A DNA stretch of 64,000 bases from an uncultured candidatus Porisulfidus sp. GTDB taxonomy: Bacteria > Pseudomonadota > Gammaproteobacteria > Poriferisulfidales > Oxydemutatoraceae. Location: the NCBI GenBank assembly GCA_965215765.1, contig OZ244118.1, positions 175,292 to 239,291 on the forward strand, read 5' to 3'. This document shows positions 14,626 through 64,000 of this stretch, in pieces. The notes below the pieces were generated by a model, which worked only from the letters and a program-made list of their open reading frames with translations, was not told the DNA's origin and did not search any database. Positions within the stretch are counted from its first letter, which is position 1; each line of letters begins with the position of its first letter. The translations under genes were made by a program, and so were the position numbers.

Positions 14626-14667
14626 GCTTTGCAGGCGAGTGCGGGAGAGGGGCAGGCGGTTTCCTGC

Positions 14668-35905: not shown

Positions 35906-36042
35906 TGTGGCATTATGAGCCGCTACTAAAAAACTGATAAAAGCCATTTAGCAATTGTCTGTTTAGCCCGCGATGATGCCCCGTCATGGGCGGTGTTGCC
36001 CATGAGTAAAAATCACTCACGGGTTTGGTGCCGGGTGAAGTG

Positions 36043-36924: not shown

Positions 36925-36941
36925 CCTGGTGTCTACGCTTC

Positions 36942-46319: not shown

Positions 46320-46716
46320 CGGGCGTGAACCAATAGTGAAGAATCATGAAAGCAGTTATGCACGGTGATTGGAAAAATAACATCGGGTGGATTGTAGCCC
46401 AGCCCGTTTTCGAAGAGGCATCCGGTGAGTCAAAGGGCGAGGGGAGCTATAGCAGGGAATGAGCCGCCTTGTGCTTGACAGAAACATTCTGACATTTGCT
46501 TCCATAAGCGAATGAGCACCCGGTGCTCCCTGAAATCCTTTTGTCAGCACAGGTTCATGACCTCCATTTCGGCGACCGGGTCGCGACTCGTTCACAAAAA
46601 CATGCTACTATCGTGTGCCGTGCCAAGCGTAACCGAGGAGCGTTGTTCATTCGTCGTCCTGGTTACGTGGTTCAAAACCCCGATATCTACAAAATCAGAA
46701 ATATGAGGAGATTTTT

Positions 46717-48126
46717 ATGTCTGTAAAAGATGCATTGAAGCTTATGGCGGCCAATGAGACTCAGTTTGTAGACCTGCGTTTCACCGACACTCGCGGAAAG
46801 GAGCAACACGCCACCTACCCGGCAGAAGTCGTTGATGAAACATTTTTTCGAGTCGGAAGAATGTTTGACGGTTCATCAATAGCGGGATGGAAAAGCATAG
46901 ATCAGTCGGACATGATGCTGATGCCGGATCCCCATACTGCACTTGTTGACCCCTTCTTCGCGCATCCAACTGTTTCTTTTCGTTGTGACGTTCTGGAGCC
47001 GGGTACGCACAAAGCCTACAAACGTGATCCGCGTTCTCTTGGCAAACGTGCAGAAAAGTATTTGTTGTCAACCGGAATCGCTGACGCGGCCTGGTTTGGT
47101 CCGGAACCGGAGTTTTTTGTTTTTGATTCCGTCGACTGGTCTCTGGAAATGGGGGGAGCCCACTACGAAATCAGATCCGAAGAAGGCGCATGGAGTAACC
47201 AAGGAGACGAAGACGGGTGCAGCACCGGACACCGGCCTTCTGTGAAAGGCGGGTACTTTCCAGTGCCGCCAGTCGATTCATTGCAAGACATCCGCTCCGG
47301 CATTTGTGAGATCCTGAAAAAACTGGGAGTTGTGCCTGAAGTACATCACCACGAAGTCGGGACAGGTGGTCAATGTGAAATTGGTACGCGCTTTGATACG
47401 CTCGTTCGCAGGGGCGACATGAACCAGATTCTGAAATACGTGGTCTTGAATGTTGCGAATGACTATGGAAAAACCGCCACATTCATGCCCAAGCCGCTGG
47501 TAGGGGAAAACGGCAGCGGAATGCACGTCCATGTCTCCATGAGCAAAAATGGAGAGAATATCTTTCATGGTGAGGAATACGCAGGACTCTCAAAAATCGC
47601 CTTGTATTTTATTGCCGGAGTCTTTGAACACGCGCAAGCGGTGAACGCTTTCACAAACGCAGGAACAAACAGCTACAAAAGACTGGTTCCAGGTTTTGAG
47701 GCACCGGTCAATCTGGCTTACTCGCGGCGAAATCGCTCGGCTGCAATACGTGTCCCGATGGTCAATTCCCAGAAGGAAACGCGTGTTGAAGTCCGTTTCC
47801 CGGATGCGCTTGGCAATCCCTATTTGACCTTTGCTTCCATTCTGATGGCAGGTCTGGACGGTATAGAAAGGGAGCTTTCTCCAGGAGCACCAACTGATGT
47901 TGACTTGTATGATGTTTCTGCAAAAAAGAGCAAGAACATCGCCAACGTGTGCGGTAGCCTGCCAGAGGCACTTGCGGCACTGAACAGTGATCGTGAGTTT
48001 CTCAAAAAAGGCAATGTGTTTTCAGATGACATGATTGATGGCTACATCGCATTAAAAATGCAGGAAATAAACCGGTTTCGAGCTTCTACCCATCCCCTGG
48101 AGTTCGACATGTACTACAGTTGCTAA
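46717..48126 (+). CDS. glnA: Glutamine synthetase, type I
   Basis: 469 aa. FDGSSI, GSGMHVH.S and NSYKRLVPG.EAP motifs. The adenylylation-region Tyr context is present. Confidence 0.96.
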   Translation: MSVKDALKLMAANETQFVDLRFTDTRGKEQHATYPAEVVDETFFRVGRMFDGSSIAGWKSIDQSDMMLMPDPHTALVDPFFAHPTVSFRCDVLEPGTHKAYKRDPRSLGKRAEKYLLSTGIADAAWFGPEPEFFVFDSVDWSLEMGGAHYEIRSEEGAWSNQGDEDGCSTGHRPSVKGGYFPVPPVDSLQDIRSGICEILKKLGVVPEVHHHEVGTGGQCEIGTRFDTLVRRGDMNQILKYVVLNVANDYGKTATFMPKPLVGENGSGMHVHVSMSKNGENIFHGEEYAGLSKIALYFIAGVFEHAQAVNAFTNAGTNSYKRLVPGFEAPVNLAYSRRNRSAAIRVPMVNSQKETRVEVRFPDALGNPYLTFASILMAGLDGIERELSPGAPTDVDLYDVSAKKSKNIANVCGSLPEALAALNSDREFLKKGNVFSDDMIDGYIALKMQEINRFRASTHPLEFDMYYSC

Positions 48127-48210
48127 AGCGTCTCTGGCAGACAGCGTTGCAAGCAGAAAGCACCTGCGTCTGCGTGTAACACGAATTCTTGAGCCAGGGT
48201 GCGTCGTCTC

Positions 48211-48745
48211 CCGGTTCTGAACAGGTCAAAAGCACCGCCGCCAATCGGACACTGCTTCTTCCTGATGGCTTCGTCAGAGGCACCCCCCACTCGTCATTTC
48301 GGTCACTCTTGGGTGTTACAGGGTTGGCGCAACGCAGTATTTCCCTCTTTGGCCAATCGTCTGTTTGTCGTGCTGACGATTTTTGCCAGCAGATCTGAAC
48401 AGATCAAAAGCGCCGCCGCCAATCGGACACTGCTTCTTCCTGATGGCTTCGTCAGAGGCTCCCCCACTCGTTATTTCGGTCACTCTTGGGTGATGGGTTG
48501 ACGCAACGCAGTGTTTCCCTCTTTGGCCAATCGTCTGTTTATCGTGCTGACGATTTTTGCCAGCAGAACTGAACAGGTCAAAAGCACCGCCGCCAATCGG
48601 ACACTGCTTCTTCCTGATGGCCCCGTCAGAAGCACCCCCACTCGTTATTTCGGTCACTCTTGGGTGATGGGTTGACGCAACGCAGTGTTTCCCTCTTTGG
48701 CCAATCGTCTGTTTTATCGTGCTGACGATTTCTGCCAGCAGACCG
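48211..48745. repeat. Tandem array (~174-178 bp unit, 3 copies) of glnA-dnaG spacer sequence
   Basis: ccaatcggacactgcttcttcctgatgg occurs at 48241, 48419 and 48593. The same spacer is single-copy at about 53700..53890. Confidence 0.88.
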
Positions 48746-49526
48746 GCGGCTTTTGCCGGCTCGAGGGCATCCTTTACCCGTGAAGGCTTATGCAGCAGGT
48801 ATGTGATGACCACGCGCGCCGAGTTGTACTGGTGTTGCCGGGGTGACTTCTGTGGAGACGCCCGCAACAAAGTCCGGGACGGTCGGAGCGCGAGATCTGC
48901 TGCCGGCTGCCGGCTGCCGGCTTTTTTGGCAAGCTCCTCCGGGAGACAAGTTTTTGAAAATGGTCTTTGGCAACGGGAGAAGCAATTTTTTGGCATGCGC
49001 AACGAGCTGTGTGCAACCTTCCGGATTTTCCAGCAACACGCCTGCCGCAAGATTTTGCAAGGCAAAGCGTGACAGCGGTACTGCCTGGTTCGAGTCAAAT
49101 GCGGATGGCCCTTGCTCCTTCACCAGATCGTCAGGATCCCGGTTTTCCGGAAGCGACAAAAACCGCACATCTTTCCCGTCTTTGAAAAGTGGCAGCAAAA
49201 CCGTGGATGCGGCCAAAGCGACCCGTTGTCCCGCAGCGTCACCGTCAAAGCAGAAGACGATCTCGTCGGACATTTTGAACAGGCTTGATATGTGGTAGGC
49301 GGTTACTGCGATGCCCGGCGTGGCAACGCAGTTTCTCATGCCAAGAGAGGCAAGAGAGACCACGTCCATATAGCCTTTAACCACCCACGCTTCGTTGGAG
49401 CTTTTTATGGTGCTGGCTTCAGGAACCCCATAAAGTTCGCGGCGTTTTTGGAACAACGGGGTTTCGGGAGAGTTAAGGTATTTGGCATGCGCACTCTCAT
49501 CCAGTGCCCGCCCACCAAAAGCAATG
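48720..49526 (-). pseudogene. dnaG internal/3' fragment (frameshifted), fused to a gltB fragment
   Basis: ORF 48788..49687 reads ...IIAFGGRALDESAHAKYLNSPETPLFQKRRELYG...GYMDVVSLA...FCFDGDAAGQR. (TOPRIM region) and then shifts frame relative to dnaG at 54828..56543. Confidence 0.85.
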
Positions 49527-49885
49527 ATGCGGGAGGGGAGAAGCGCGACGTAAAATGCTTCGTTCGGCGCACCAAAGGCAATTTCGGCGCACCGTCTGGC
49601 GATAAAAAGCCGACGTTCGAAGTCTTGGACATCATCATTTGTGCCGTCTCGCTTTGTGGCGCGGCAAAAACACCATGTCAGCAGCAAACAGCTTTGCGAG
49701 CTTCAGTTTTGCTTCTTCTGCTGTGACGCGTAAAAAGAGCTCAGGTTTCTTTAGCAGCAGGCCGCACCCATCGCCAGTTTTTCCGTCTGCCGCAATCGCG
49801 CCGCGATGTGTCAATCGGGACAGGGCTTTGATACCTGTAGTGACCAGGTGGTGGCTCGGCGTGTCATCCCTTATGGGCGATCAGA
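49527..49885 (-). pseudogene. gltB 5' fragment (internally deleted), 5' part of the chimera
   Basis: ...NDD.QDFERRLFIARR.AEIA.G..NEAFYVA.L.SR.IA matches gltB residues near 60640..60760. It also matches 60890..61140 after a deletion of about 140 bp at a short direct repeat. Confidence 0.85.
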
Positions 49886-50196
49886 TCTGCACAGGGCAGA
49901 GGTGTGGGCGTCTCGTTTTGGAGTAAATCACGGCGCGGCACCCGTTTTGCACTGACCGGTCAATGTTGCCGTGTTCCTTGTGCTGGCGTGACGAATTACG
50001 GCTTCCTTCCTGAAAACGCGTGGTACTATAAGCCGGCACGGAACAGCCAACGGAGTTCCGCTCGGAGACGGCGTTCGCTTCTGCCGCCTTGGTAAAGAGG
50101 CGGAGCTTTCGGGTGACAGTGGTTGGAGGGGTGCTTCGTGAGTGTTTTTGTATTTTGATTGAGCTTTGACTTGGCTCGGAGCGGAGGGACGTACTT

Positions 50197-52491
50197 GTGT
50201 TAGTAGACAGTTATGGGTTTTTTGCGGCTTGCAGGAAAATTGCTTGCCTTTCCATTTTGCTTGCATTCTCGTCGAGTGCCCAAGCGATATTTGTAACGAC
50301 ACCAGTCGATGTCACTTTCGAAGAATCACCGTCAACAATAACAGAAATGTTTGGCTCCGCCCAAGAGAACAGTTTTCTGATCAAAAAATTGACAATTACA
50401 AATGGTAGTGCGCAGACTAAATGGAGCATAGGGGATGGGGATGGGGAGCCGAAATATGGTAGAGCCGACTTTATCAGTTCCACCGCACGTTCGGATGCCA
50501 CTACCGTAACCGTGACCCTTACGACCATGGGGGAGACAGTTGTTGTCAGGTACAAGTTGCGTGATGATCCCGCTCCCAGTGGAAGTGGTGATGTAGGTAC
50601 ACTTGATCAATTTGACGTGATTATTGAGGATGATACAAGTAAAACCAAGGTGATTGCTCTTGTTGGTATCCGTAACAATCCGCCAATAGTACGTGATTCC
50701 AAAGGAGCAGAGATTACCGACCCTACATCCGTTGGTATATCTGCAGCTACGTATGTTGTTGGTGGGGTGAGTACGGCTGTGTTCACGGCATACGAAAAGC
50801 AAGGTGAAGGTGTGGTTGGTACTGCTCCTTACCTTAGGTGGTCAATTTATAGTGTTAACGAAGGCTCTACCGTGTCCTTTTCCAATGGTGAGCAAACCAC
50901 TACGGGTCTTCAAACTACCTCAGAAATAGAGGTGGTGTATAGAAGCTCCCAGGATGAAAACATCGAAAATGCAGGGTATACACTGGTGGTGAAAGACACC
51001 ATTGGCAGAGCAGCCACCGTTACTGTGTCGCTCATGCCGGAGCCCCCGGTGATTAGTACGTATGAAGGTTCTCCGGTTGAAAATGGCGTATTAAGTATTG
51101 ATGTGCGTGAGTCTGCTTTTGGTGATCGAGGGTTTAAGTTTAGGCTTTCAGCTGAGTATGCCTGCCCGACGACGCTTCCGGCATGTTTGAAATGGAATGC
51201 CGAAAGTGAAACTGCAGAAGTATCTGTAGACCCTACTGCCGCTGCAATGGCGGGAGCCCCACTTACAGTCACAGTCCAAAGACCAGACAGTTCGCCAGTT
51301 TCTTTCCAGGTTAAGGTTAGAGTTTTGGATAACTCCGACGATACACTCTTGAATCGTGAAATCACTGTTAACGTAACGGTTATAGAGAACATGCCGCCCG
51401 AAATTGTGTCGATAGACGGGCGGACAGATACAACGGTGTTCACTGTTTCGACAAATTTAGAAACCGTGCGATTTCCTGTCGTTGCTGCTGATGATTTTGA
51501 ACCGGAAAGCTTGACATGGGAGATTTCCAATGCTGCGGGTTCAGGCAAAGGCACCGCCAGCTTCGTCGTGGGGGATGGGATGCTGCCGTCAACAACCGCC
51601 AGGGGGACAACGGTCGTTGTCAGCTTTGTGAGATCGTCGCCTGTAAGCACGACAGGGTCGTCATTCACACTCACCGTGATGGATACTGAGGGGCTTATGG
51701 ATACGGCTACGGTGACAGTTAATCCGAGTGAGTCTCCCACTATTCCGACACAGGTGCCGAATGCTGGGTTGCTTGGTGGATGGCGAGATATGGTTGTAAT
51801 GCCGGTGGCTTCAAGCCAGGTTGTGATACTCAGGGCAGAAGACTTTGGACTTGGGGAAAAAGCAGCTCTGGAGTGGGAAGTTACAAATCTTTTCGGTCTT
51901 GATTTTGATAGCACAAATAGCAAGACCATGGGGTCAGAAGGCAGGCTTGTGTTCAGGTTGGCTGATCCAAGGACGCAACTTACCGGCAGATTCACTGTTG
52001 AGGTAACAAATTCCTACGGAGAAAAAACCAGTAGGCGGATTACGCTTAGCGGAGAAAATGAGCCTCCCGTAGTAACGTACCGGGTCGGTGATGTGTCTTC
52101 CAGCCGCAGTGGGACTGGAGGAACGATAGCCTTGCCGGAGAGTGCGTTGACAATGATCATGTTTAGTGCCGACGATCCAGTTGGTCAGCCTGTAGCGGGT
52201 TCCACATTCACGTGGACATTAGTGGGTCAGGATGTCGCCTTGACAGCATCTTTCGTCGGAGTAATGCCTGAAACGAGCCGCGAAACCACAGGGAAGAGTG
52301 TTGTCGTTCAGTTCGTGAGGGGGGCACCCGGGGTGGAAAGCTCTTTTATTATTGAGGTCAGCGATGGTCGTGATAATGATGAAACGGGTGGAAACGGCAC
52401 CAATCGCATAACCGTGAATATAGTGCCCATGGAGGCGGGGCAGGTAGGGCAGCTCAGGGTCAGAACGTTTCTGGGTGGTGCCGTCCGCTGA
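50197..52491 (+). CDS. Large secreted Ig/cadherin-like repeat protein A (C-terminal ...FLGGAVR tail)
   Basis: 764 aa. GTG start with GGAGGG upstream. Signal peptide ...CLSILLAFSSSAQA|IF. Repeated beta-rich modules separated by N(N/M/E)PP(I/E/V)V motifs. Tail is QLRVRTFLGGAVR-stop. Family unassigned. Confidence 0.8.
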   Translation: MLVDSYGFFAACRKIACLSILLAFSSSAQAIFVTTPVDVTFEESPSTITEMFGSAQENSFLIKKLTITNGSAQTKWSIGDGDGEPKYGRADFISSTARSDATTVTVTLTTMGETVVVRYKLRDDPAPSGSGDVGTLDQFDVIIEDDTSKTKVIALVGIRNNPPIVRDSKGAEITDPTSVGISAATYVVGGVSTAVFTAYEKQGEGVVGTAPYLRWSIYSVNEGSTVSFSNGEQTTTGLQTTSEIEVVYRSSQDENIENAGYTLVVKDTIGRAATVTVSLMPEPPVISTYEGSPVENGVLSIDVRESAFGDRGFKFRLSAEYACPTTLPACLKWNAESETAEVSVDPTAAAMAGAPLTVTVQRPDSSPVSFQVKVRVLDNSDDTLLNREITVNVTVIENMPPEIVSIDGRTDTTVFTVSTNLETVRFPVVAADDFEPESLTWEISNAAGSGKGTASFVVGDGMLPSTTARGTTVVVSFVRSSPVSTTGSSFTLTVMDTEGLMDTATVTVNPSESPTIPTQVPNAGLLGGWRDMVVMPVASSQVVILRAEDFGLGEKAALEWEVTNLFGLDFDSTNSKTMGSEGRLVFRLADPRTQLTGRFTVEVTNSYGEKTSRRITLSGENEPPVVTYRVGDVSSSRSGTGGTIALPESALTMIMFSADDPVGQPVAGSTFTWTLVGQDVALTASFVGVMPETSRETTGKSVVVQFVRGAPGVESSFIIEVSDGRDNDETGGNGTNRITVNIVPMEAGQVGQLRVRTFLGGAVR

Positions 52492-52604
52492 GAAATTGAC
52501 CTTGGTGCCCTTCGGGTGGGCAATATGTTTACCAGATGGCGTGGCTTTGGTCTCGGTTCCTGTACGGGAACCAGCAGATAAAGCGATAGCCTTGGCGAGG
52601 TTTT

Positions 52605-53650
52605 AACGCAGGAACAAACAGCCACAAAAGGCTGGTTCCCTGTTTTGAGGCACCGGTCAATCTGGCTTACTCGCGGCGAAATCGCTCGGCTGCGATACGT
52701 GTCCCGTTGGTCAACTCCCAGAAGGAAACGCATGTTGAAATCCGTTTCCCAGATGCGCTTGGCAATCCCTGTTTGACTTTTGCTTCCATTCTGAAACATT
52801 GCCAGCGTGTGCGGCAGCCTGCCAGAGGCACTTGCGGCACTGAACAGTGATCGCGGGTTTCTCAAAACAGGCAATGTGTTTTCAGATGTCATGATTGATG
52901 GCTGCATCGCATTAAAAATGCAGGAAATAAACCGGTTTCGAGCTTCTACCCATCCCCTGGAGTTCGGCATGTACTACTGTTGCTAAAGCGTCTCTCGCAG
53001 ACAGCGTTGCGAGCAGAAAGCACCTACGTCTGCGTGTAACACGAATTCTTGAGCCAGGGTGCGTCGCCTCCCGGTTCTGAACAGGCCAAAAGCTCCGCCG
53101 CCAATCAGACACTGCTTTTTCCTGATGGTCTCGTCAGAGGCACCCCCACTCGTCATTGGCACTTGCGGCACTGAACAGTGATCGCGGGTTTCTCAAAAAA
53201 GGCAATGTGTTTTCAGATGACATGATTGATGGTTGCATCGCATTAAAAATGCAGGAAATAAACCGGTTTCGAGCTTCCACCCATCCCCAGGAGTTCGACT
53301 TGTACCACTGTTGCTAAAGCGTCTCTCGCAGACAGCGTTGCAAGCAGAAAGCACCCACGTCTGCGTGTAACACGAATTCTTGAGCCGGGGTGCGTCGCCT
53401 CCCGGTTCTGAACAGGCCAAAAGCTCCGCCGCCAATCAGACACTGCTTCTTCCTGATGGCCTCGTCAGAAGCACCCCCACTCGTCATTGACACTTGCGGC
53501 ACTGAACAGTGATCGCGGGTTTCTCAAAAAAGGCAATGTGTTTTCAGATGTCATGATTGATGGCTGCATCGCATTAAAAATGCAGGAAATAAACCGGTTT
53601 CGAGCTTCCACCCATCCTTTTGAGTTCGACATTTACTACAGCTGCTAGGG
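52605..53650 (+). pseudogene. Three tandem glnA 3'-end fragments plus spacer (331 bp period)
   Basis: The first copy starts at the glnA NAGTNSYKRLVPGFEAP equivalent and has an internal deletion. Anchors (g/a)cacttgcggcactgaacagtgatcg occur at 52828, 53159 and 53490. Each copy ends ...MQEINRFRAS.HP.EF..YY.C-stop. Confidence 0.9.
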
Positions 53651-53928
53651 CGTTTCTCGCAGACAGCGTTGCAAGCAGAAAGTGCCCACGTCTGCGTGTA
53701 ACACGAATTCTTGAGCCAGGGTGCGTCGCCTCCCGGTTCTGAACAGATCAAAAGTGCCGCCGCCAATCGGACACTGCTTCTTCCTGACAGCTTCGTCAGA
53801 GGCACCCCCACTCGTCATTTCGGTCGCTCTTGGGTGATACAGGGTTGACGCAACGCAGTATTTCCCTCTTTGGCCAATCGTCTGTCCGGTTGTTGCCATC
53901 AGAGGGCTCTTGCGAGGCGGGCTGGTGT

Positions 53929-54827
53929 TTAGCGTTTTTTAATCAGTTCTTGCAAAGTCTTTTTTTCTTCGAGACTGAGTTCTGTTGCTTCAGCTTTCTT
54001 GATCAGCGCTTCCAGCAGACCGGCGACTTTTTCCGGCTCGAGGGCGTCCTTTACCTCTGAAGGCTTATGCAGCAGATATGTGATGGCCACGCGCGCCGAG
54101 TTGTACTGGTGTTGCCGGGATAGCTTCTGTGGAGATGTCTGCATCAAAGTCCGGGGCGGGTTGGTGTTTAGCGTTTTTTAATCAGTTCTTGCAAAGTCTT
54201 TTTTTCTTCGAGACTGAGTTCTGTTGCTTCAGCTTTCTTGATCAGCGCTTCCAGCAGACCGGCGACTTTTGCCGGCTCGAGGGCGTCCTTTACCTCTGAA
54301 GGCTTATGCAGCAGATATGTGATGGCCACGCGCGCCGAGTTGTACTGGTGTTGCCGGGATAGCTTCTGTGGAGATGTCTGCATCAAAGTCCGGGGCGGGT
54401 TGGTGCTTAGCGTTTTTTAATCAGTTCTTGCAAAGTCTTTTTTTCTTCGAGACTGAGTTCTGCCGCTTCAGCTTTCTTGATCAGTGCATCCAGCCTGGTC
54501 GTCTGCACGTGATTTTCAAGTGCTTTCATGGAATCTCCAAACTCGTCCCGGGTCGGAGCCTTCTCGTTCAGCAGTTCCAGGAGACGCTGGTAGTGTTTGT
54601 GGTCACTCAGAAGTTGCAACAAAGCCCCGGTACTGGCCGGCTGCCGGCTTTTTATCGTGCTGACGATTTCTGTCAGCAGACCGGCGACTTTTGTCTGCTC
54701 GAGGGCGTCCTTTACCTCTGAGGCTTATGCAGAAGATATGTGATGGCCACGCGCGCCGAGTTGTACTGGTGTTGCCGGGATGGCTTCTGTGGAGATGTCT
54801 GCATCAAAGTCCGGGGCGGGTTGGTGC
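53929..54827 (-). repeat. Three tandem dnaG 3'-end fragments (239, 239, 421 bp units)
   Basis: ttagcgtttttt(t)a(a)tcagttcttgcaaag (stop plus ...KKTLQELIKKR) occurs at 53929, 54168, 54407 and at the genuine gene end 54828. The units are mosaics of dnaG C-terminal coding segments. Confidence 0.9.
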
Positions 54828-56543
54828 TTAGCGTTTTTTTATCAGTTCTTGCAAAGTCTTTTTTTCTTCGAGACTGAGTTCTGCCGCTTCAGCTTTCTTG
54901 ATCAGTGCATCCAGCCTGGTCGTCTGCACGTGATTTTCAAGTGCTTTCATGGAATCTCCAAACTCGTCCCGGGTCGGAGCCTTCTCGTCCAGCAGTACCA
55001 GGAGACGCTGGTAGTGTTTGTGGTCACTCAGAAGTTGCAACAAAGTCCCGGTACTGGCTGGCTGCCGGCTTTTTATCGTGCTGACGATTTCTGCCAGCAG
55101 TCTGGTACCTTTTATTCCGGTTTTCGCTATGACCGCAGGCTCGAGGGCGTCCTTTACTCCTGAAGGCTTATGCAGCAGATATGTGATGGCCACGCGCGCA
55201 GAGTTGTACTGGTGTTGCCGGGATGACTTCTGTGGAGACGCCTGCATCAAAGCCCGGGGGGACGGTCGGATCGCGAGTTCTGCTGCTGGCAGACCGGCTT
55301 TTTTGGCAAGCTCCTCCGTGAGAAAGTTTTTGAAAATGGTCTTTGGCAACGGGTGAAGCAATTTTTTGGCACGTGCAACGAGCTGTGTGCGACCTTCCAG
55401 ATTTTCCAGCAACACGCCTGCCGCAAGATTTTGCAAGACAAAGCGTGACAGCGGTACTGCCCGGTTGGAGTCAAATGCAGATGGCCCTTGTTCCTTCACC
55501 AGATCGTCAGGATCCTGGTTTTCCGGAAGCGAGAAAAATCGCACATCTTTCCCGTCTTTGAATAGTGGCAGCAAAACCGTGGATGCGGCCAAAGCGGCTC
55601 GTTGTCCCGCAGCATCACCGTCAAAGCAGAAGATGATCTTGTCGGACATTCTGAACAGGCTTGATATGTGGTAGGCGGTTGCTGCGGTGCCCAGCGTGGC
55701 AACGCAGTTTCTCATGCCATGCGAGGCAAGAGAGACCACGTCCATATAGCCTTCAACCACCCACACTTCGTTGGAGCTTTTTATGGTACTGGCTTCTAGA
55801 ACCCCATAAAGTTCGCGGCGTTTTTGGAACAACGGGGTTTCGGGAGAGTTAAGGTATTTGGCAAGCGCACTCTCATCTAGCGCCCGACCACCAAAAGCGA
55901 TGACGCGTCCGCGCCGATCACGAATCGGAAACATCAGGCGATTAAAAAAGCGGTCGTAGCAAGTTCTTCCTTTTATGACCACCAGGCCGGCAAGTTCCAA
56001 AAGGCGCATGTCAAAATCCTTTGCCAGCTGTGTGGCAAGTGTGTTTCTTCCATGTGGGGCATAGCCGATCATGAAGTCCAGGGTGGTTGCCGGGTCAATT
56101 TGTCGGGAACGAAGGTAGTTTTTGGCTGTGGAGCTCCGGGACAACGCGTCCTGATAAAAAAGCGCGGCTTTTTCGAGTGCTTTGAACAGGTCTTCTGTGT
56201 GTTTTTTCGATCGCTCTGTCTGCGCCGGTGAAGCACCGCTGCGAGGCACAGTCATGCCATAACGATCTGCCAAGGATTCGATCGTTTCAACGAAGCTCAG
56301 GTTTTGATACTCCATGAGGAAGCGAATGATGTTGCCCCCTACGCCACAGCCGAAGCAGTGGTAAAACTGTTTGTCCCGGTCGACGGTGAAAGATGGGGTC
56401 TTTTCCTGGTGGAAGGGGCAGCACGCTTTGTAGCTGTTCCCTCGCCGTTTCAGGGGAACAAACTCTTCGATGACGTCAACAATGTCGGCTCGGGAAACCA
56501 GGTCGTTGATAAACTGCTCAGAAATTCTGCCGCGTTGTGCCAT
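54828..56543 (-). CDS. dnaG: DNA primase
   Basis: ORF is open to 56591. The ATG at 56543 gives MAQRGRISEQFINDLVSRADIVDVIEEFV.LKR.G..YKACCPFH.EKTPSF (Zn-ribbon), then TOPRIM (VVEGYMDVV, FDGD.AG). Confidence 0.93.
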   Translation of the reverse strand: MAQRGRISEQFINDLVSRADIVDVIEEFVPLKRRGNSYKACCPFHQEKTPSFTVDRDKQFYHCFGCGVGGNIIRFLMEYQNLSFVETIESLADRYGMTVPRSGASPAQTERSKKHTEDLFKALEKAALFYQDALSRSSTAKNYLRSRQIDPATTLDFMIGYAPHGRNTLATQLAKDFDMRLLELAGLVVIKGRTCYDRFFNRLMFPIRDRRGRVIAFGGRALDESALAKYLNSPETPLFQKRRELYGVLEASTIKSSNEVWVVEGYMDVVSLASHGMRNCVATLGTAATAYHISSLFRMSDKIIFCFDGDAAGQRAALAASTVLLPLFKDGKDVRFFSLPENQDPDDLVKEQGPSAFDSNRAVPLSRFVLQNLAAGVLLENLEGRTQLVARAKKLLHPLPKTIFKNFLTEELAKKAGLPAAELAIRPSPRALMQASPQKSSRQHQYNSARVAITYLLHKPSGVKDALEPAVIAKTGIKGTRLLAEIVSTIKSRQPASTGTLLQLLSDHKHYQRLLVLLDEKAPTRDEFGDSMKALENHVQTTRLDALIKKAEAAELSLEEKKTLQELIKKR

Positions 56544-56750
56544 AGGGTTCAGTGAGCTTTGAGCCGCGTGGAAGGCTTTGCCACTTGCCAACCAGATTCT
56601 GCTCCCGATGAGCAGTGCGGCTCAGCACGCTCAAGAAGGGAAACTGGTTCGATTTTCCACACTGCAAGCAACAGCCGGAAAAGGGTTTTTATAACTTGGG
56701 GACAGGCAAGCTGTGGCTGCAGGGCACTGTTTCCGGAAACAGCAGCGCAA

Positions 56751-59700
56751 CTAGGCAGCTTCGAGCAGACTGTCAAGCAGGGTTTCAAGCTCTGTGGCTT
56801 TGGGCTTGACGAACCAGAATTTGGGCAGCAACATGCCGAACTCGGCACTGATGTTCTGACCCCATTGGCTGTTGGTCTTGCTTACGTGTTCATGGATGCA
56901 ACGATACAGATATTCTACGTAAGACTCCATAATTTCAGTATCCAGCCGGTTAATTTCTACCAGCTCCCGGTTGTATCGGTCACTGAAATTTTGCTCCTGA
57001 TCAAAAACAAATGCCATACCACCTGTCATTCCAGCCCCGAAATTAACGCCGGTTCTTCCGAGCACGACGACTGCGCCGCCGGTCATGTACTCGCAAGCAT
57101 GGTCTCCCGTTCCTTCAACGACTGCAATCGTCCCGGAGTTTCGAACCGCAAAGCGTTCTCCGGCTGTTCCGGCGGCAAAGCACTTGCCACCCGTCGCCCC
57201 ATAAAGGCAGGTGTTTCCCATAATCGGTGTTTCCTGGCTGAGGGTTCGAGCCAAGTGCGGCGGCAATAAAACCAGTTCCCCGCCCGCCATGCCTTTGCCA
57301 ACGTAGTCATTGGCATCCCCTTCCAGGCGCAGATTCAGCCCGGCAGAGTTCCACGCTCCGAAGCTTTGTCCGGCGGTTCCTTCAAACTTTACCGTAATGG
57401 GCGTGTCAGCCAAACCTTTTTTGCCGTGGTGTTTGGCAATTTCTCCAGATATGAGTGCGCCTATGGAGCGGTCTGTATTGAAGATTTCATAACGATACTC
57501 CCCACCATGGCCGGCAATGATCGCCTCGCCCATATCCTTCAGCATGCGATTTGCCAGTCTGGCCTGATCCGAGGGCGGGTTTCCCGACTCTGTGCAAAAC
57601 ACGGGGTATTGTGTGCTTTCTGTCTTGTCCAGGAGCACGTCTGCAGAAAGATTCCGCAAGCGCGGGTTCGTGGTTTTTGTCTCTTCGAGCAACTCGGTTT
57701 TGCCAATCAGGTCTGTAAAATTTCTGACCCCCAGAAGTGCCATCCATTCACGCAACTCTTCTGCGACGAATCTGAAATAGTTTATAACCATTTCCTTTTT
57801 ACCGATAAAGTGCAGGCGTCTCAACACGCTGTTTTGGGTTGCCACACCGGTCGCGCAATTGTTCAAGTGGCAAATTCGCAGGTATTTGCATCCCATGGCA
57901 ATCATGGGGGCGGTTCCAAACCCGAAGCTCTCCGCGCCAAGGATGGCGGCTTTCACAATATCCAGGCCGGTTTTAAGGCCGCCATCGGTTTGCAGTCGGA
58001 TTTTATGACGCAGGCCGTTAGCGATCAGGGCGTTGTGCGTTTCACGCAGTCCGAGTTCCCATGGCCCGCCAGCGTATTTGATGCTGCTCAAGGGGCTTGC
58101 GCCGGTACCCCCGTCGTAACCGGATATCGTAATCAAGTCTGCGTATGCTTTGGCAACTCCGACGGCAACTGTTCCCACTCCAATTTGGGCAACCAGCTTG
58201 ACCGAAACCAAAGCTGCGGGGTTGACCTGCTTCAAATCGAAAATCAGTTGCGCCAAGTCTTCAATGGAATAAATGTCGTGATGTGGTGGTGGGGAAATCA
58301 GGGATATGCCAGGCTTTGAAAACCGGAGTTTCGCAATCATGTCGTTAACTTTGTGCCCCGGCAGTTGCCCACCTTCGCCAGGTTTTGCGCCTTGGGCAAT
58401 TTTTATTTGCAGAACTTCCGCGTTTACCAGGTAGTACGGCGTAACGCCGAAGCGACCCGAAGCGATCTGCTTGATTTTTGAATTTTTTGGCGTGTTGAAG
58501 CGTAACGATGATTCTCCGCCCTCGCCTGAGTTTGAGCGACCTCCCAGTGCATTCATTGCTTCGGCAAGCGTTTCATGTGCTTCAGGTGAAAGCGCGCCCA
58601 GCGACATGCCGGCGGAATCAAAGCGCGGCAAGATGGTTTCCGCAGACTCGACCTCAGACAAAGGAATTCCGGCCTCAGGCAGTTTCAGAGCCAACAAATC
58701 ACGCAGCACCATAGGCTGGCGCTGATTCACGTGAGCTGCGAACACTTTATATTGTTCGTAGTCTCCGCTACTTGCGGCAGCGCGCAGGGACATGACAACC
58801 TGCGGGTTGAAAGCGTGGAACTCACCCTCTCCGTGATATTTCAAAAGTCCGCCTGGACGGATGTTACGGTGCGGGTTCCAGGTGCGGCGTGCCAGATCAA
58901 CCTGGTCTTGGTGCAGGTCGGAAAACTTCATGCCTTGTAAGCGGGGGGATGTGCTGGCAAAGCAGAGTTCCAGTATCTCCTGGTGCAAGCCGACAATTTC
59001 GAACAACTGCCCACCACGGTAGCTGGTGATGGCGGAAATTCCCATTTTCGAGAGGATTTTATACAGCCCCTTGTTGATGGCCTTACGATATGTCCGTCCG
59101 GCAACGTTTCTCTTGTCAATGGATGCCGGATCTTTCTTGAATTGCAAAGCGTGCAGTATCTGGTACGTCAGGTAAGGGTGTATGGCGGTGGCACCACTGC
59201 CGATCAAAATTGCAAAGTGATGGGGATCCCGAACCCAGCCAGTGTTGATCACGATGTTGACCCGGCAGCGAAGCCCTGCGCGGATGAGTCTGTGGTGCAA
59301 AGCCCCGCAGGCCAGCAGGGAGTGCATGGGAATGTACCCTTTGCGTATGTTCTGGTCGCTGAGCACCAGAAGGCGAACGCCGTTTTCCTGTACGGCACGG
59401 ATGGCACTGTCACACAGTGCGAGTAACCCGGATTGCAGGCTGAGCTCTTCACGTATATTGAGATCAAAAATCTGATGTTTCAGATAGCCGACCGGGTTTT
59501 CCAGAAGAGCGTTGTATTTGTGTTCGGAAAGCACGGGAGAATCCAGTGCCAGCCGCCGGGCGTGTTCCGGCCTTTCCACAAAGGGATTGGCTTCCTCGCC
59601 GAATGAGGTTTCCAGAGACATTACGATTTTCTCTCGCAAAGAATCGATCGGAGGATTCGTGACTTGCGCAAAAATCTGTCTGAAGTTGTCGAAAAGCGAG

Positions 59701-61208
59701 CGAATGGACGTGGAAAAAACCGGCAGTGGCGTATCGTCGCCCATGGATCCGATTGCTTCCTGCCCAATTTTGGCAAGGACTTTGATGACTTGCTCGCATT
59801 CTTCCGAAGAAACGTCAAACATTTTTTCGTAGATCGCCAATTTTTTGGGAGTGAATGCGGTTTTTAGCAGCAAGTCATCATCAATTGGCGTTGTCAGACG
59901 CCGGGTGTGGGTTTTGACCCACTGGTAATAGGGCTGGCGAGACTTCAGCAAGTCGTCTATTTCCTCCGGTAAGATCAAGCGACCCGTGAGGGTGTCTGCC
60001 GCGATCATTTCGCCGGGTTTCAATCGCCCCTTGAGCACCACGTCTTGTGGCTTGTAATCGCATACGCCTGCTTCAGTGGCCAGGATAATAAGGCGGTCAC
60101 GGGTGACCACGTAACGAGACGGGCGCAAGCCATTACGATCCAAAGCGCATGCTGCATAACGCCCGTCAGTCAAGGCGATTGCCGCCGGCCCATCCCAGGG
60201 TTCGCTGTGCATGGAGTGATAGCTGTAAAAGGCGCGCAGATCAGGGTCGCTGTGGCCGGTGTTTTGCCACGCCGGTGGTATCAGCATGCGCATGGCGCGA
60301 AAGATATCGAGTCCGCCAGCAAGCAGCAACTCCAGCATATTGTCCAGGCTTGAGGAATCGGAACCCTGCTGTGAAACAATGGGAGCCAGTTCTGTCAAAG
60401 CCGGAAGCAATGGTGAGTTCATGATGTGTGCGCGCGCGCTTGCCCAGACCCGGTTGCTGCTTATCGTATTGATCTCGCCGTTGTGCGCCAGAAAACGAAA
60501 GGGTTGTGCCAACCTCCATTGTGGCCAGGTGTTGGTTGAAAAGCGTTGATGGAACAGGCAAATAGAGCTTTGCAGGAGGCTGTCGCGCAAGTCTTCATAA
60601 AAAACCGGCAGGTTTTTCGGCATGATTAGCCCTTTGTACGCGATGACGCGGGAGGAGAGACTCGCGACGTAAAAGGCTTCGTTAGAAACGCCAAGGGCAA
60701 TTTCGGCGCGCCGTCTGGCGATAAAAAGCCGACGTTCGAAGTCCTGGGCATCATCATTTGTGGCGTTTACAAAGATCTGCGCAATAAAAGGCAGGGTTTC
60801 CAGGGCTTTTGCGCCGCAAGCCGAAATGTCTGTAGGAACCTCGCGCCAGCCGGCAACTGTCAACCCTTCGTCGATGAGCTTTTGTTCCAGGATGTGTGTG
60901 CATTTGTGCCGTCTCGCTTTGTGGCGCGGCAAAAACACCGTGCCAGCAGCGAACAGCTTTGCGAGCTTCAGTTTTGCTTCTTCTGCCTTGGCGCGTAAAA
61001 AGAGCTCAGGTTTCTTTAGCAGCAGGCCACACCCGTCGCCAGTTTTTCCGTCTGCCGCAATCGCGCCGCGATGTGTCAATCGGGACAGGGCTTTGATGCC
61101 TGTAGTGACCAGGTGATGGCTCGGCGTGTCGTCCCTGTGAGCGATCAGACCATAGCCGCAACCGTCTTTTTCGAAGGAGGGGTCGTAAAGTCTGTTGTTG
61201 TGTTGCAA
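56751..61208 (-). CDS. gltB: Glutamate synthase large subunit
   Basis: 1485 aa. The CGYG-type Ntn amidotransferase N-terminus follows a short leader. FMN/Fe-S central domain and a C-terminal GXGXG beta-helix domain. Confidence 0.96.
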   Translation of the reverse strand: MQHNNRLYDPSFEKDGCGYGLIAHRDDTPSHHLVTTGIKALSRLTHRGAIAADGKTGDGCGLLLKKPELFLRAKAEEAKLKLAKLFAAGTVFLPRHKARRHKCTHILEQKLIDEGLTVAGWREVPTDISACGAKALETLPFIAQIFVNATNDDAQDFERRLFIARRRAEIALGVSNEAFYVASLSSRVIAYKGLIMPKNLPVFYEDLRDSLLQSSICLFHQRFSTNTWPQWRLAQPFRFLAHNGEINTISSNRVWASARAHIMNSPLLPALTELAPIVSQQGSDSSSLDNMLELLLAGGLDIFRAMRMLIPPAWQNTGHSDPDLRAFYSYHSMHSEPWDGPAAIALTDGRYAACALDRNGLRPSRYVVTRDRLIILATEAGVCDYKPQDVVLKGRLKPGEMIAADTLTGRLILPEEIDDLLKSRQPYYQWVKTHTRRLTTPIDDDLLLKTAFTPKKLAIYEKMFDVSSEECEQVIKVLAKIGQEAIGSMGDDTPLPVFSTSIRSLFDNFRQIFAQVTNPPIDSLREKIVMSLETSFGEEANPFVERPEHARRLALDSPVLSEHKYNALLENPVGYLKHQIFDLNIREELSLQSGLLALCDSAIRAVQENGVRLLVLSDQNIRKGYIPMHSLLACGALHHRLIRAGLRCRVNIVINTGWVRDPHHFAILIGSGATAIHPYLTYQILHALQFKKDPASIDKRNVAGRTYRKAINKGLYKILSKMGISAITSYRGGQLFEIVGLHQEILELCFASTSPRLQGMKFSDLHQDQVDLARRTWNPHRNIRPGGLLKYHGEGEFHAFNPQVVMSLRAAASSGDYEQYKVFAAHVNQRQPMVLRDLLALKLPEAGIPLSEVESAETILPRFDSAGMSLGALSPEAHETLAEAMNALGGRSNSGEGGESSLRFNTPKNSKIKQIASGRFGVTPYYLVNAEVLQIKIAQGAKPGEGGQLPGHKVNDMIAKLRFSKPGISLISPPPHHDIYSIEDLAQLIFDLKQVNPAALVSVKLVAQIGVGTVAVGVAKAYADLITISGYDGGTGASPLSSIKYAGGPWELGLRETHNALIANGLRHKIRLQTDGGLKTGLDIVKAAILGAESFGFGTAPMIAMGCKYLRICHLNNCATGVATQNSVLRRLHFIGKKEMVINYFRFVAEELREWMALLGVRNFTDLIGKTELLEETKTTNPRLRNLSADVLLDKTESTQYPVFCTESGNPPSDQARLANRMLKDMGEAIIAGHGGEYRYEIFNTDRSIGALISGEIAKHHGKKGLADTPITVKFEGTAGQSFGAWNSAGLNLRLEGDANDYVGKGMAGGELVLLPPHLARTLSQETPIMGNTCLYGATGGKCFAAGTAGERFAVRNSGTIAVVEGTGDHACEYMTGGAVVVLGRTGVNFGAGMTGGMAFVFDQEQNFSDRYNRELVEINRLDTEIMESYVEYLYRCIHEHVSKTNSQWGQNISAEFGMLLPKFWFVKPKATELETLLDSLLEAA

Positions 61209-61350
61209 GCTTATGCAGAGTAGATGTGTGGGGGGCTCTCATCTGAGTATATCACGGCCTGGTCTGGCATTCGTTTCGCACTGACCGGTCAATGTTGCCG
61301 TGTTTTTTGTGCTGGCTTGACGAGTTGCGGCTTCCTCTCTGAAAACGCTG

Positions 61351-61359
61351 TGGTATAAT
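61351..61359 (+). promoter_or_regulatory. Candidate extended -10 promoter element (TGgTATAAT) upstream of Ig-like protein B
   Basis: tggtataat at 61351..61359, about 160 nt upstream of the start codon. The paralogous position in copy A (about 50020) reads tggtactataag. Confidence 0.3.
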
Positions 61360-61520
61360 TGGCTGGATTCGAATAGCCAACGGAGTTCCACTTGGAGACA
61401 GCGATTGATTCTGCCGCCTGAGAAAGAGGCAGAGCTTTAGGGTGACAGTGGACGGGAGGGTGCTTCGAGAATGTTTTTTATTTTTAATTTGAGCTTTGAC
61501 TTGGCTCGAAACGGGGGGAT

Positions 61521-63734
61521 GTGCTTGTGTTTATAGACGGTTATGGTTTTTTTGCGGCTTGCAGGAAAATTGCTTGCCTTGCCATTTTGCTTGCATTCTC
61601 GTCGAGTGCCCAGGCGATATTTGTATCGTCACCAGTCAATATCACTTTCGACGAAGAATCAACACTTTATACGAGTACTGCCGAAGAGAACAGTTATGTG
61701 GTGGGAGAACTGACAATTACAGATGGTAGTACGCAGACTCGATGGAGTCTCGTGCAACCGAATTATGGTATAGCCGACTTTGTTCGTTCCCTCCCTACTG
61801 CCAGTACCAGTTCTGGTGATGCTGCAGCCGCAGATGCCGCCACCTTAACCGTGACCTTTTCGACCGCAGGCAAGACAGTTTTTATCAGGTATAGGCTGCT
61901 GAAAAAACTCTCTTCCATTAACATTGATCAATTTAACGTGATTGTTCGGGATGCTGCGAAAGAAACCACGCTGACACTTTTGGTTCCTATTCGTAACAAT
62001 CCACCAAGAGTATATGATTCCGAAAAAGCAGAGATCACCGACCCTACATCCGTTGCTACATATACAGCTACGTTTGTTGTTGGCGGGGTGAGTACGACTG
62101 TGTTCTCGGCAAATGAAGCGGGAGAAAAAAATATGAACGGCAGGCCTCCCTTCTTTACGTGGTCAATTATTCCGAATGTTGACAATCTCGCTACCGTGTT
62201 CTTTGCCAATACCGCTGATAGTCAATTTATTGGAAGTTTACGAGAATCAGAAGTAGGCGTGGTGTATAGAACCCTGGATGAAAACATCGCTAATGCAGGG
62301 TATACGCTAGTGGTGAAAGATACCCTGGGCAGAGCAGCCACCGTTACTGTGTTGCTTACGCCGGAATCTCCGGTGATTAGGCGTAATGGCTCTCCTGCTG
62401 AAGATGGCGAATTGGCTGTCAATATTGGCGAGCTTGATAGTGGGAGCCCGGTTGTGCTTTTAGCTGAACACACCTGCCCGCCGTTGAATCCGAAATGTTT
62501 GCGTTGGTCTAGCGATGACGTAGCTATAAACCCTAGCCCTACGGCAGGGGGAGACACGGTTAGAGTCACAATACCAGAAGGGACAGATGTAGGTGCCTCC
62601 TTTTCTGTTAAGGTTGCGGCTTATGCCTCTGACGACAGACAGCTCTCGGAGACCGCTGTTAACTTAACGATTGTAGCAGACGTGCTGCCGCCCGAAATTG
62701 TGTCAATAGACGGGCAGCGTATACGAAGGACGTTCACTGTTTCGCCAGATTTAGAAACCGTGCGATTTCCTGTCGTTGCCACTGATGATTTTGACCCGGA
62801 AAGCATGACATGGGCGATTTCCAATGCTGCGGGTTCAGGCAAAGGCACCGCCAGCTTCGTCGTGATGGATGGGATGATGAAATCAACCGCCACAACCGCC
62901 AGGGGGTCAAATGTCATGGTCGACTTTAAGAAAGGATCAGAAAATTCGTCATTTACATTCACTGTGACGGATCGCGCAGGGCTTGTTGATACGGCCACGG
63001 TGACTGTTGAGCCGCGGGTTGTTGGTTCTTCTACTGATCCTGAAGCAGCAAACTGGAACACGGTGCAATCTGTACCAGCGGAGACAGGTTCAAGCGTGGT
63101 TTTGACATTCAGGGCAGAAGATCCTGGACTTGGAGAAAAAGCTGCTCTGAGGTGGTCAGTAGAATTCCTTCAAGGTCTTGTTTTTGATAGCACAGATAGC
63201 ATGACCGTGATCGCGGGTCCGGAAGCCAAGCTCGTGTTCCGCTTTTCTCCAAGTGCGCAACGTGAAAGGGCCTTCCAAGTTCGGGTAACAAATTCCGGTA
63301 ATAAATACGTCGAGGAAGTCATTCATTTGACCAGTAGTACCAGGGTCGAAATCGAAAATGAACCCATAGTAACGTATCAGGTCGGTAGTGCGTCTTTCAG
63401 CCGCAGTGGGGCTGGAGGAATGATAGGTTTTCCAATAAATCGGGTGGCAACAGGCATCTCGTTTAGTGCCTACGACCCGCTTCAGAGTGGCGTGCTCACG
63501 TGGATATTAGGAGAACAGTCTGGCTTGAAGGCATCTTTTGTCGGTACAAATAAGGGGGAGAATGTCGTAGTCCGGTTCGAGGAGCCACCCGTGGAGGGGA
63601 GCTATTTCATTATTCTGGTCAGCAATTTAATTGGGCGAGATGATATGATCTTTGCTAATACCATACGTGTGGATTTTGTGCCCGGAGGGCCGCAACTCAG
63701 GATCAGAACATTTCTGGGTGGTGCCGTCCGCTGA
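61521..63734 (+). CDS. Large secreted Ig/cadherin-like repeat protein B (C-terminal ...FLGGAVR tail)
   Basis: 737 aa. GTG start (alternative GTG at 61527). Signal peptide ...CLAILLAFSSSAQA|IF. Same module plan as protein A. Tail is QLRIRTFLGGAVR-stop. Confidence 0.8.
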   Translation: MLVFIDGYGFFAACRKIACLAILLAFSSSAQAIFVSSPVNITFDEESTLYTSTAEENSYVVGELTITDGSTQTRWSLVQPNYGIADFVRSLPTASTSSGDAAAADAATLTVTFSTAGKTVFIRYRLLKKLSSINIDQFNVIVRDAAKETTLTLLVPIRNNPPRVYDSEKAEITDPTSVATYTATFVVGGVSTTVFSANEAGEKNMNGRPPFFTWSIIPNVDNLATVFFANTADSQFIGSLRESEVGVVYRTLDENIANAGYTLVVKDTLGRAATVTVLLTPESPVIRRNGSPAEDGELAVNIGELDSGSPVVLLAEHTCPPLNPKCLRWSSDDVAINPSPTAGGDTVRVTIPEGTDVGASFSVKVAAYASDDRQLSETAVNLTIVADVLPPEIVSIDGQRIRRTFTVSPDLETVRFPVVATDDFDPESMTWAISNAAGSGKGTASFVVMDGMMKSTATTARGSNVMVDFKKGSENSSFTFTVTDRAGLVDTATVTVEPRVVGSSTDPEAANWNTVQSVPAETGSSVVLTFRAEDPGLGEKAALRWSVEFLQGLVFDSTDSMTVIAGPEAKLVFRFSPSAQRERAFQVRVTNSGNKYVEEVIHLTSSTRVEIENEPIVTYQVGSASFSRSGAGGMIGFPINRVATGISFSAYDPLQSGVLTWILGEQSGLKASFVGTNKGENVVVRFEEPPVEGSYFIILVSNLIGRDDMIFANTIRVDFVPGGPQLRIRTFLGGAVR

Positions 63735-64000
63735 GGAATTGACCTTGGTGCCCTTCGGGTGGGCAATACGCTAACCAGACGTGACTTTGGCCTCGGTTCC
63801 TGCCAGGCCAAGGTATCCCGCACTGTAGCCTTGGCGTTGTGAGGTCTCTCTGACCCGGGTCGACAATGTTTCTTTGAAGTATTCGGGAAAGAGTATCGTC
63901 AGTACAGCTTATTAAAGGTCAGCAGGACTGGACGCCTTTGGTTGCCCTCTCGTGTTACCTGGCCGTTTCCCGAATCGCCTTGTTGCACTCTGAGCAGTGA

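Follow-up and report, generated by a model that had tools for sequence, protein, structure and literature searches.

Housekeeping-gene relics in a tandem cluster of secreted Ig-like paralogs from an uncultured gammaproteobacterium

Organization of the locus

We analysed a 64,000-nt stretch of DNA from an uncultured candidatus Porisulfidus sp. (contig OZ244118.1 of assembly GCA_965215765.1, positions 175,292 to 239,291), here called the window, and within it a locus made of two head-to-tail units, A and B, in which whole or fragmentary copies of the housekeeping genes glnA, dnaG and gltB accompany a gene for a secreted immunoglobulin-like (Ig-like) protein, named IgA in unit A and IgB in unit B. 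Unit A stands first, at the upstream end, in a larger tandem cluster of secreted Ig-like (beta-sandwich repeat) paralogs. The locus contains the following features, numbered from the first letter of the window, with protein lengths in amino acids (aa) and open reading frame abbreviated as ORF:

46717–48126, plus strand: intact glnA, 469 aa (Pfam Gln-synt_N and Gln-synt_C, full length)
47656–52604: unit A, comprising glnA 3′ part, spacer, dnaG relic, gltB relic, upstream region, IgA and 3′ flank (blastn chain against unit B)
48755–49531, minus strand: dnaG relic, equal to DnaG aa 229–485 (blastn)
49521–49531: deletion junction dnaG-55907/gltB-60640, 4,732 bp gone (three-way sequence comparison)
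49521–49885, minus strand: gltB 5′ relic, equal to 60640–60766 plus 60901–61151
49886–50196: IgA upstream region, homologous to the divergent region between gltB and IgB
50197–52491, plus strand: IgA, 764 aa, intact ORF
52492–52604, plus strand: 3′ flank of IgA, with two hairpins
52598–52605: founding A/B junction, Ig 3′ flank (stop plus ~110 nt) joined to glnA ~47656
52605–52986, plus strand: glnA 3′ relic heading unit B
54828–56591, minus strand: intact dnaG, 587 aa, all domains (Pfam)
56751–61208, minus strand: intact gltB, 1485 aa, all four domains (Pfam)
61209–61520: divergent gltB/IgB intergenic region
61521–63734, plus strand: IgB, longest ORF 737 aa, or 735 aa when counted from the database start at 61527
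63735–63845, plus strand: 3′ flank of IgB, homologous to 52492–52604

A blastn self-comparison of 46501–52604 against 52605–64000 (E-values from 0 to ~1e-6, the latter for the shortest Ig patch; all relic segments fall below 1e-35) gave collinear diagonals forming one chain, also visible as direct-repeat families, in which 47656–52604 and 52605–~63845 are two head-to-tail copies. This bears out the ~11.3 kb tandem duplication proposed in a preliminary description made from the letters alone, including its extent, from inside glnA to just beyond the Ig-like gene. The offsets along the chain step from 4949 to 6380, 11119 and ~11320, in agreement with the structure described there. Specifically, 47656–47845 matches 52605–52794 (93.7% identity), 47935–48364 matches three 331-nt units at 52795–53885 (93–94%), and 48755–49531 matches 55135–55907 (91.9%, dnaG aa 229–485); within the gltB 5′ part, 49521–49647 matches 60640–60766 (87%) and 49636–49885 matches 60901–61149 (94%), and the Ig-like genes with their flanks match patchily (49921–52562 with 61245–63802, 75–89%). 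As described earlier, the working glnA uses the 3′ part lying in copy A, and the working dnaG and gltB are those of copy B (Pfam, blastn). The Ig-like start codons had been placed at 50197 and 61521, 11324 bp apart; the former stands, but 61521 is merely the first GTG of the longest IgB ORF, and the homologous codon is 61527, giving an offset of 11,330.

The founding junction

On its left side the duplication starts within glnA, with the breakpoint at ~47647–47656 (codon ~313, from boundary alignment), and the part repeated at 52605 is the last 471 nt of the gene, from 47656. The right breakpoint lies at ~63826–63845, beyond which comes repeat-unit sequence of the downstream array. Across the A/B junction (52588–52615) the sequence reads AGCCTTGGCG, AGGTTTT, AACGCAGGAAC, or, in an alternative rendering of the right side, AGCCTTGGCG, AGGTTTT, AACGCAGG. 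Homology between the Ig 3′ flank and glnA at this point is at most 3 nt, and the join therefore arose by illegitimate recombination.

For comparison we used further contigs of the same ENA metagenome assembly: an exact-protein look-up with GlnA returned three that encode the identical protein, and a later look-up added one of 354 kb. The same kind of look-up with DnaG, IgB (P0012), P0007 and P0013 gave no match. The sample contigs are ~98% identical to the window in common genes, and several strains ~1–2% apart are present in the sample. Unit A also occurs in contigs L081 and L082, at 97.5–97.7% identity. Seven copies of the junction, on the window, L081, L082, L083 and L085, have an identical core, GAGGTTTTAACGCAGG, and the secondary glnA relics of all haplotypes agree in where they start and in an 89-bp internal deletion. 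There was therefore one founding join.

Read data came from four runs of the source sample (X1–X4), as unitigs and contigs, the metagenome contigs being a form that drops rare variants. A 125-nt unitig matches 52502–52626 exactly in all four runs, at 0.4–0.9 of single-copy depth, so that the 52.6 kb junction singled out in the preliminary description is backed by read-derived sequence. The copy A Ig gene and the unit A-specific sequence are at single-copy depth, equal to gltB, and the final codons of the gene, with the first ~30 nt of its 3′ flank, reach 12–15 times single-copy depth, which makes them multi-copy in the sample.

Relics and deletions

The loss from copy A of everything between the 5′ part of dnaG and the 3′ part of gltB, earlier put at ~4.7 kb, is confirmed as 4,732 bp (55908–60639). 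This deletion lies on an 11-nt microhomology, GCGATGACGCG, found in both dnaG and gltB, which through later substitutions now reads GCAATGATGCG in copy A. The gltB relic of copy A has an internal deletion of ~134 nt (60767–60900) on an 8-nt microhomology, CATTTGTG, and has lost a further ~60 nt that include the gltB start codon. The dnaG relic (777 nt, 93% identical to the working gene) carries a frameshifting 1-nt insertion, a 6-nt insertion and a 3-nt deletion, with substitutions at all three codon positions, and the glnA relic of unit B (94–95% identical to glnA) has one in-frame stop and lacks 89 bp internally (equivalent to 47846–47934). Relic substitutions fall on codon positions 1, 2 and 3 in the ratio 22:34:48. 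The relics of the three genes, 93–95% identical to the working copies, are thus decaying as pseudogenes, as the spread of substitutions, the frameshift, the stop and the lost start codon attest, and the housekeeping debris had been correctly recognized as pseudogenic. We also considered whether the gltB relic is a specially conserved regulatory element, and rejected this because its conservation does not exceed that of the dnaG and glnA relics.

The fused gltB′-dnaG′ relic still forms an ORF of 299 aa on the minus strand (48788–49687), in which Pfam sees only Toprim and the end of DNAG_N. Its counterparts are 413 aa long with the DnaB-binding domain in L081 (12188–13429) and 266 aa long in L082. 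Were the window's ORF transcribed from a gltB-type promoter, the product would be a truncated primase without the zinc finger; the varying length of the ORF across haplotypes suggests that it is debris. Scans of promoter and terminator consensus sequences gave background levels only, and no Rfam family reached its gathering score anywhere in the 64 kb window.

The Ig-like proteins and their family

IgA has a Sec signal peptide (..LLAFSSSAQA/IF, cleaved between A and I), whose A-Q-A cleavage motif can be read directly from the sequence, and a C-terminal tail, QLRVRTFLGGAVR; IgB has the same signal peptide and tail. The two proteins are 48% identical by BLASTP and 55% identical over aligned codons, with the signal peptide and the last 13 residues conserved between them. 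Their upstream non-coding regions are 80% identical, whereas the adjoining relics are 94–95% identical. The Pfam family Big_9 (PF17963, gathering cut-off 23.6 bits) matches IgB at 25.3 bits and IgA, below the cut-off, at 15.5 bits; across the family, 12 of 15 members have one weak Big_9 domain each at E<=0.1, and only some of these reach the Pfam cut-off. Foldseek matched the model of the protein to strings of beta-sandwich domains in cadherin, titin and the S-layer protein SbsB, with TM-scores of 0.1–0.2, and ‘Ig-like’ is reasonably taken as a label for a predicted fold class, not as a firm family assignment.

The tail, R-x-R-x-[FL]-L-G-G-A-V-R-stop, ends five secreted proteins from two unrelated families in the window (7294–7335, 11393–11434, 14668–14706, 52450–52491 and 63693–63734), namely IgA, IgB and three GLUG-motif secreted proteins. 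No NCBIfam or Pfam model covers it, and it may be a lineage-specific sorting signal.

In a search of 5.8 billion proteins IgA retrieved 15 clusters, every one on contigs of this population, and in a profile (hidden Markov model) search of 1.8 billion representatives full-length relatives were found only within the family, the matches beyond it being domain-level only, to giant multi-repeat proteins. IgA and its allele P0002 are the family outlier, ~52% identical to all other members, which are 58–90% identical to one another. The source organism is without a close sequenced relative in the GTDB species-representative collection. A scan of 185,579 species representatives with DnaG, aimed at relatives in the unduplicated state, gave best identities of 37–47%, to unclassified Gammaproteobacteria, ‘Candidatus Venteria’, Competibacteraceae and others, and no informative relative.

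A larger array downstream of IgB

In an 88 kb sister haplotype (ctg48952, 98% identical), which has IgA too, IgB is followed on the same strand by at least four paralogs in tandem, the genes after IgB encoding 730, 736, 755 and 741 aa plus a fragment. IgB groups with these downstream paralogs, at 63–66% aa identity. The 2.997 Mb contig on which IgB lies carries at least three further family members, from which we infer a tandem cluster of at least three members in the window's own genome.

Ahead of most of the downstream units lies a gltB relic that has the boundary 60763/60901, the right end at 61151 and no start codon, as in unit A, and in unit 6 dnaG 55650–55907 is fused to gltB 60640, the same junction as the 4.7 kb deletion of unit A. 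These scars are common to unit A and the downstream units and therefore were propagated or exchanged between units. The downstream units also have a founding junction of their own, where sequence ~510 nt past the stop is joined to gltB 60675. Each unit comes with an upstream region, signal peptide, full ORF and C-terminal tail of its own. The seven full-length paralogs examined all have uninterrupted frames of 730–764 codons, and we consider it very improbable that seven frames would have stayed open without selection for function.

Structural variation in the population

Two units headed by a glnA relic are present in the window, L081 and L082, and three in L083 and L085, the three-unit haplotype being represented by contigs of 354 kb and 16 kb. 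The three-unit haplotypes have an independent deletion, dnaG-56036/gltB-60916, on the microhomology TGTGGC, and the smaller deletions lie on 8-nt and 6–7-nt microhomologies. Each of the five sample contigs has at least two units, and the one-unit state is absent among them. Copy number thus varies in the population, and the occurrence of two or three glnA′-headed units, together with the separate downstream array, points to unequal crossing-over.

The three-unit haplotypes show birth-and-death turnover within the array. They carry an IgA-like gene shortened by an in-frame internal deletion to 649 aa, with 83–84% aa identity to IgA, and the Ig gene of the middle unit is broken:

L083 4719–6668 and L085 10001–11950: shortened IgA-like gene
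L085 16028–18029: Ig gene of the middle unit, broken into ORFs of 119, 212 and 221 aa

In sample contigs placed along the window, the joints 48711>55072 and 55070>48712 were considered as a possible one-unit revertant. A 30-nt exact repeat (48712–48741 = 55071–55100) lies at the contig ends, and these joints were set aside as placement ambiguity.

Divergence, selection and gene conversion

Silent divergence between units was measured as K4, the divergence at four-fold sites in conserved codons, and set beside the divergence between relics:

K4, IgB against units 3–5 and among units 3–5: 0.10–0.16
K4, IgA against IgB: 0.20
K4, IgA against all others: 0.20–0.30
Reference divergence between relics: 0.05–0.12

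The K4 of IgB and units 3–5 matches the divergence between relics. For IgA and IgB, a synonymous divergence (dS) of 0.32–0.38 by the NG86 method was judged to be inflated by multi-hit codons and by the alignment of variable segments, and was replaced by the four-fold value of 0.20. Whole-gene dN/dS (omega) is 1.0–1.1 (NG86) or 1.4–1.6 (YN00) for IgB and units 3–5, and 0.8–1.3 for IgA against the rest. Between strains the values are:

IgA: dS 0.005–0.012, omega 0.67–1.63
IgB: dS 0.021, omega 0.89
ffh, glnA, dnaG, gltB and a major facilitator superfamily (MFS) gene: dS 0.009–0.043, omega 0–0.22

Strain alleles of IgA are 99% identical, and between strains the Ig genes change far faster in amino-acid sequence than the housekeeping genes, with dS alike. 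As the dS of the Ig genes is the same as that of the housekeeping genes, there is no hypermutation.

Pairs of alleles can be 100% identical over hundreds of residues and then differ in discrete blocks at 45–86% identity, some of which match another paralog at 87–98%; the mosaic sets are P0008 with P0014, P0006 with P0007 and P0015, and P0009 with P0010 and P0005. These patterns point to segmental exchange between paralogs. In sliding windows across eight units, identity is 0.90–0.94 in the relics and 0.81–0.87 in the upstream region and signal peptide, alternates between 0.52 and 0.90 in the gene body, and is 0.83 at the 3′ end.

Origin of the array and alternative explanations

We favour, with a probability of roughly 0.8, an explanation of the locus as a tandem paralog cluster of lineage-specific secreted proteins shaped by illegitimate duplication, microhomology deletion, unequal crossing-over, gene conversion and diversifying selection. 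As traced in the junctions and relics of the window, the process began with an illegitimate join from ~110 nt past the Ig stop to the inside of glnA, duplicating ~11.3 kb, after which the redundant dnaG–gltB segment of one copy was deleted between 11-nt direct repeats, with smaller deletions trimming the relics in a like manner and the relics decaying as pseudogenes. Homologous unequal crossing-over between units would then alter unit number, and gene conversion could shift scars and gene blocks from unit to unit, as scars in non-adjacent units and mosaic alleles suggest. Diversifying selection on the mature protein would keep the paralogs distinct, and the signal peptide, C-terminal tail, flanks and relics would stay similar and could act as recombination anchors. 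The cost of array growth would be short-lived housekeeping-gene debris, and the outcome would be a varied set of secreted or surface proteins, probably directed at a host, a phage, a competitor or some such antagonist.

Several observations weigh against this explanation. The downstream array was read in the sister haplotype, the window itself ending 155 nt past unit B, and the order of events that placed A-type scars downstream of unit B cannot be reconstructed. The silent divergence of IgA (0.20–0.30) is about twice what the unit A relics predict (~0.10), and a single clock does not fit both; the working genes may have refreshed the relics through conversion, or else a donor outside the sampled set may have overwritten IgA together with the region upstream of it. 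K4 itself was taken from conserved codons only, a choice that may favour converted segments. The AlphaFold model, though all-beta, has low confidence (mean predicted local distance difference test score, pLDDT, 51.9), and none of the RNA runs searched for the locus contain it.

The simple account that follows from the preliminary description, in which one recent 11.3 kb duplication and one 4.7 kb deletion left a net second surface-protein gene with IgA as the diverged twin of IgB, correctly captures the collinearity of A and B, the single junction and the single large deletion. It is nevertheless too simple and, as the whole story, we regard it as unlikely: the gltB scars, and once the dnaG/gltB fusion as well, recur downstream of IgB within a family array, so that scars have been propagated or exchanged; IgB is nearer to the downstream units (K4 0.10–0.16, 63–66% aa identity) than to IgA (K4 0.20, 48–55%), which is not its recent twin; the upstream non-coding region has diverged well beyond its adjoining relics (80% against 94–95% identity); and three-unit haplotypes exist. 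An assembler that joined two strain haplotypes of one locus head to tail could have produced a similar picture in a sample holding several strains ~1–2% apart, where assemblers can err, but such an artefact is very unlikely indeed, because A and B differ by 6–25%, far beyond strain distance, the junction joins unrelated sequences on five contigs and is matched by the exact 125-nt unitig in four runs, and A-specific depth equals that of single-copy gltB.

Import of unit A from a related lineage, through illegitimate recombination facilitated by homology and anchored in glnA, would account for relics that stand 5–7% from the resident genes, above strain distance, and for an IgA that has no close partner in the resident array. 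We found no donor lineage, the family being confined to this population, and no discontinuity between haplotypes across glnA (5′ and 3′ parts, 99.8–99.9% against 98.7–99.6%); the relic substitutions resemble pseudogene decay and not orthologue divergence, and the scars of unit A also occur in the resident downstream units, all of which makes import very unlikely. A dedicated diversification machine, whether targeted hypermutation like that of a diversity-generating retroelement (DGR) or cassette switching of the vls, pilS or msp2 kind, is suggested by the extreme amino-acid divergence, the conserved ends and the block mosaicism between copies, but we hold it to be improbable to much the same degree. 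The between-strain dS of the Ig genes (0.005–0.021 against 0.009–0.043 in housekeeping genes) gives no sign of hypermutation, the divergence covers the whole gene and the upstream region, and there is no template repeat, Ig segments within the window having no second copy beyond the A/B pair; no reverse transcriptase was found in a Pfam scan that covered ~17 of the 39 window ORFs of at least 200 aa and so was not exhaustive. Against cassette switching, every unit has a complete gene with no silent-cassette architecture, and no minority variants were seen in the sample contigs, though contigs drop rare variants.

Other tandem arrays and neighboring genes

The spacers of both units contain long-period tandem arrays:

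48216–48742: 174 nt × 3, in the glnA–dnaG spacer of unit A (Tandem Repeats Finder, 94% matches), with units that match 53738–53885 in unit B
52827–53819: 331 nt × 3, each unit made up of the final ~160 nt of glnA and sequence downstream of it
53916–55259: overlapping arrays of 239 nt × 2.4 and 421 nt × 2.3, made of repeated dnaG 3′-end pieces plus downstream sequence, the real dnaG 3′ end being the last copy

The number of DnaB-binding-domain fragments varies across haplotypes. In the window as a whole, ten long-period (97–480 nt) tandem arrays make up ~10 kb of the 64 kb, at positions that include 5474–6358, 22213–23457, 25558–25986, 27053–27685, 34262–35904 and 42471–45069 as well as the three above. 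Several take in the 3′ ends of genes (79 nt of ffh, ~160 nt of glnA, 88–277 nt of dnaG), and the 79-nt ffh piece is present in several units of a 289-nt × 9 array, which has nine copies in the window and ~5 in L081 and L082. The genome either makes tandem duplications unusually often or clears them unusually slowly. Nothing relevant turned up in the literature when it was searched for genomes with many tandem arrays at the ends of genes.

A second tandem paralog array, at 7294–18990 on the minus strand, encodes the three GLUG-motif secreted proteins. Upstream of the distal two GLUG genes lies a relic collinear with 18726–18990, which comprises intergenic sequence and the last ~52 codons of pyrF, and the array thereby repeats the pattern of the Ig array, in which a unit drags along a piece of a neighboring housekeeping gene:

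7294–10125, 11393–13765 and 14668–18633, minus strand: GLUG-motif proteins
18832–19677: pyrF
13994–14260 and 10243–10509: pyrF relic copies, 79–88% identity

Type III secretion genes (YscJ/SctJ, YscK and SctL families) lie at 36025–38224, 10 kb upstream of the locus, and suggest a host-associated lifestyle. With their predicted Sec signal peptides, the Ig-like proteins are not obvious type III substrates.

A broader possibility, which we offer tentatively and consider unlikely, is that the Ig array, the GLUG array and the long-period arrays together reflect a lineage-specific biology in which frequent duplication or slow deletion is exploited for variable secreted repertoires that share an undescribed sorting tail, with relics kept as recombination anchors.

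Discussion

The closest parallel is the lpl cluster of Staphylococcus aureus, which consists of same-orientation tandem paralogs with variable ORF centres and a conserved unit that runs from the 3′ end of an ORF across the intergenic sequence into the 5′ end of its neighbour, and differs in copy number between strains through unequal crossing-over and gene conversion (Tsuru & Kobayashi 2008, PMC2568036). The locus described here is similar in having at least three same-strand tandem paralogs with conserved ends and intergenic regions, variable ORF centres and mosaic alleles. It differs in that the inter-ORF unit holds fragments of gltB, dnaG and glnA dragged in by founding duplications, and in that its products are not lipoproteins but predicted Sec-secreted beta-sandwich repeat proteins restricted to a single uncultured lineage.

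Gene duplication-amplification, and the innovation-amplification-divergence model associated with it, have reportedly been developed in enterobacteria by Roth, Andersson, Nasvall and colleagues. The steps proposed for the Ig array are alike: a join that is free of homology or rests on microhomology, RecA-type unequal recombination, loss of redundant parts and divergence of copies. Laboratory amplifications, however, are young, near-identical and unstable, whereas the units here are 5–25% diverged and fixed in all sampled haplotypes, with datable pseudogene scars. Cassette-based antigenic variation, as in Borrelia vlsE, Neisseria pilE/pilS and Anaplasma msp2, also yields mosaic surface proteins with conserved ends by segmental conversion, but the Ig array has no single expression site with promoterless silent cassettes, and its variation is seen between strains. 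The proteins themselves resemble Big_9 or cadherin-like repeat adhesins in their Big_9 matches, all-beta model and Foldseek matches to cadherin, titin and SbsB, but differ in that the full-length architecture, with its signal peptide and RxRxFLGGAVR tail, has no relatives outside the lineage.

The locus requires no new mechanism and belongs to a known kind of bacterial gene-family evolution, but it is an unusually legible natural record of the birth of a bacterial surface-protein family. Its founding junctions, microhomology deletions and fragments of essential genes are datable scars, and several structural stages coexist in one environmental population. The neutral relics beside the genes provide an internal clock against which a whole-gene dN/dS of at least 1 can be read, and the family, being secreted, lineage-restricted and marked by a common C-terminal tail, is a candidate interface with a host, phage or competitor.

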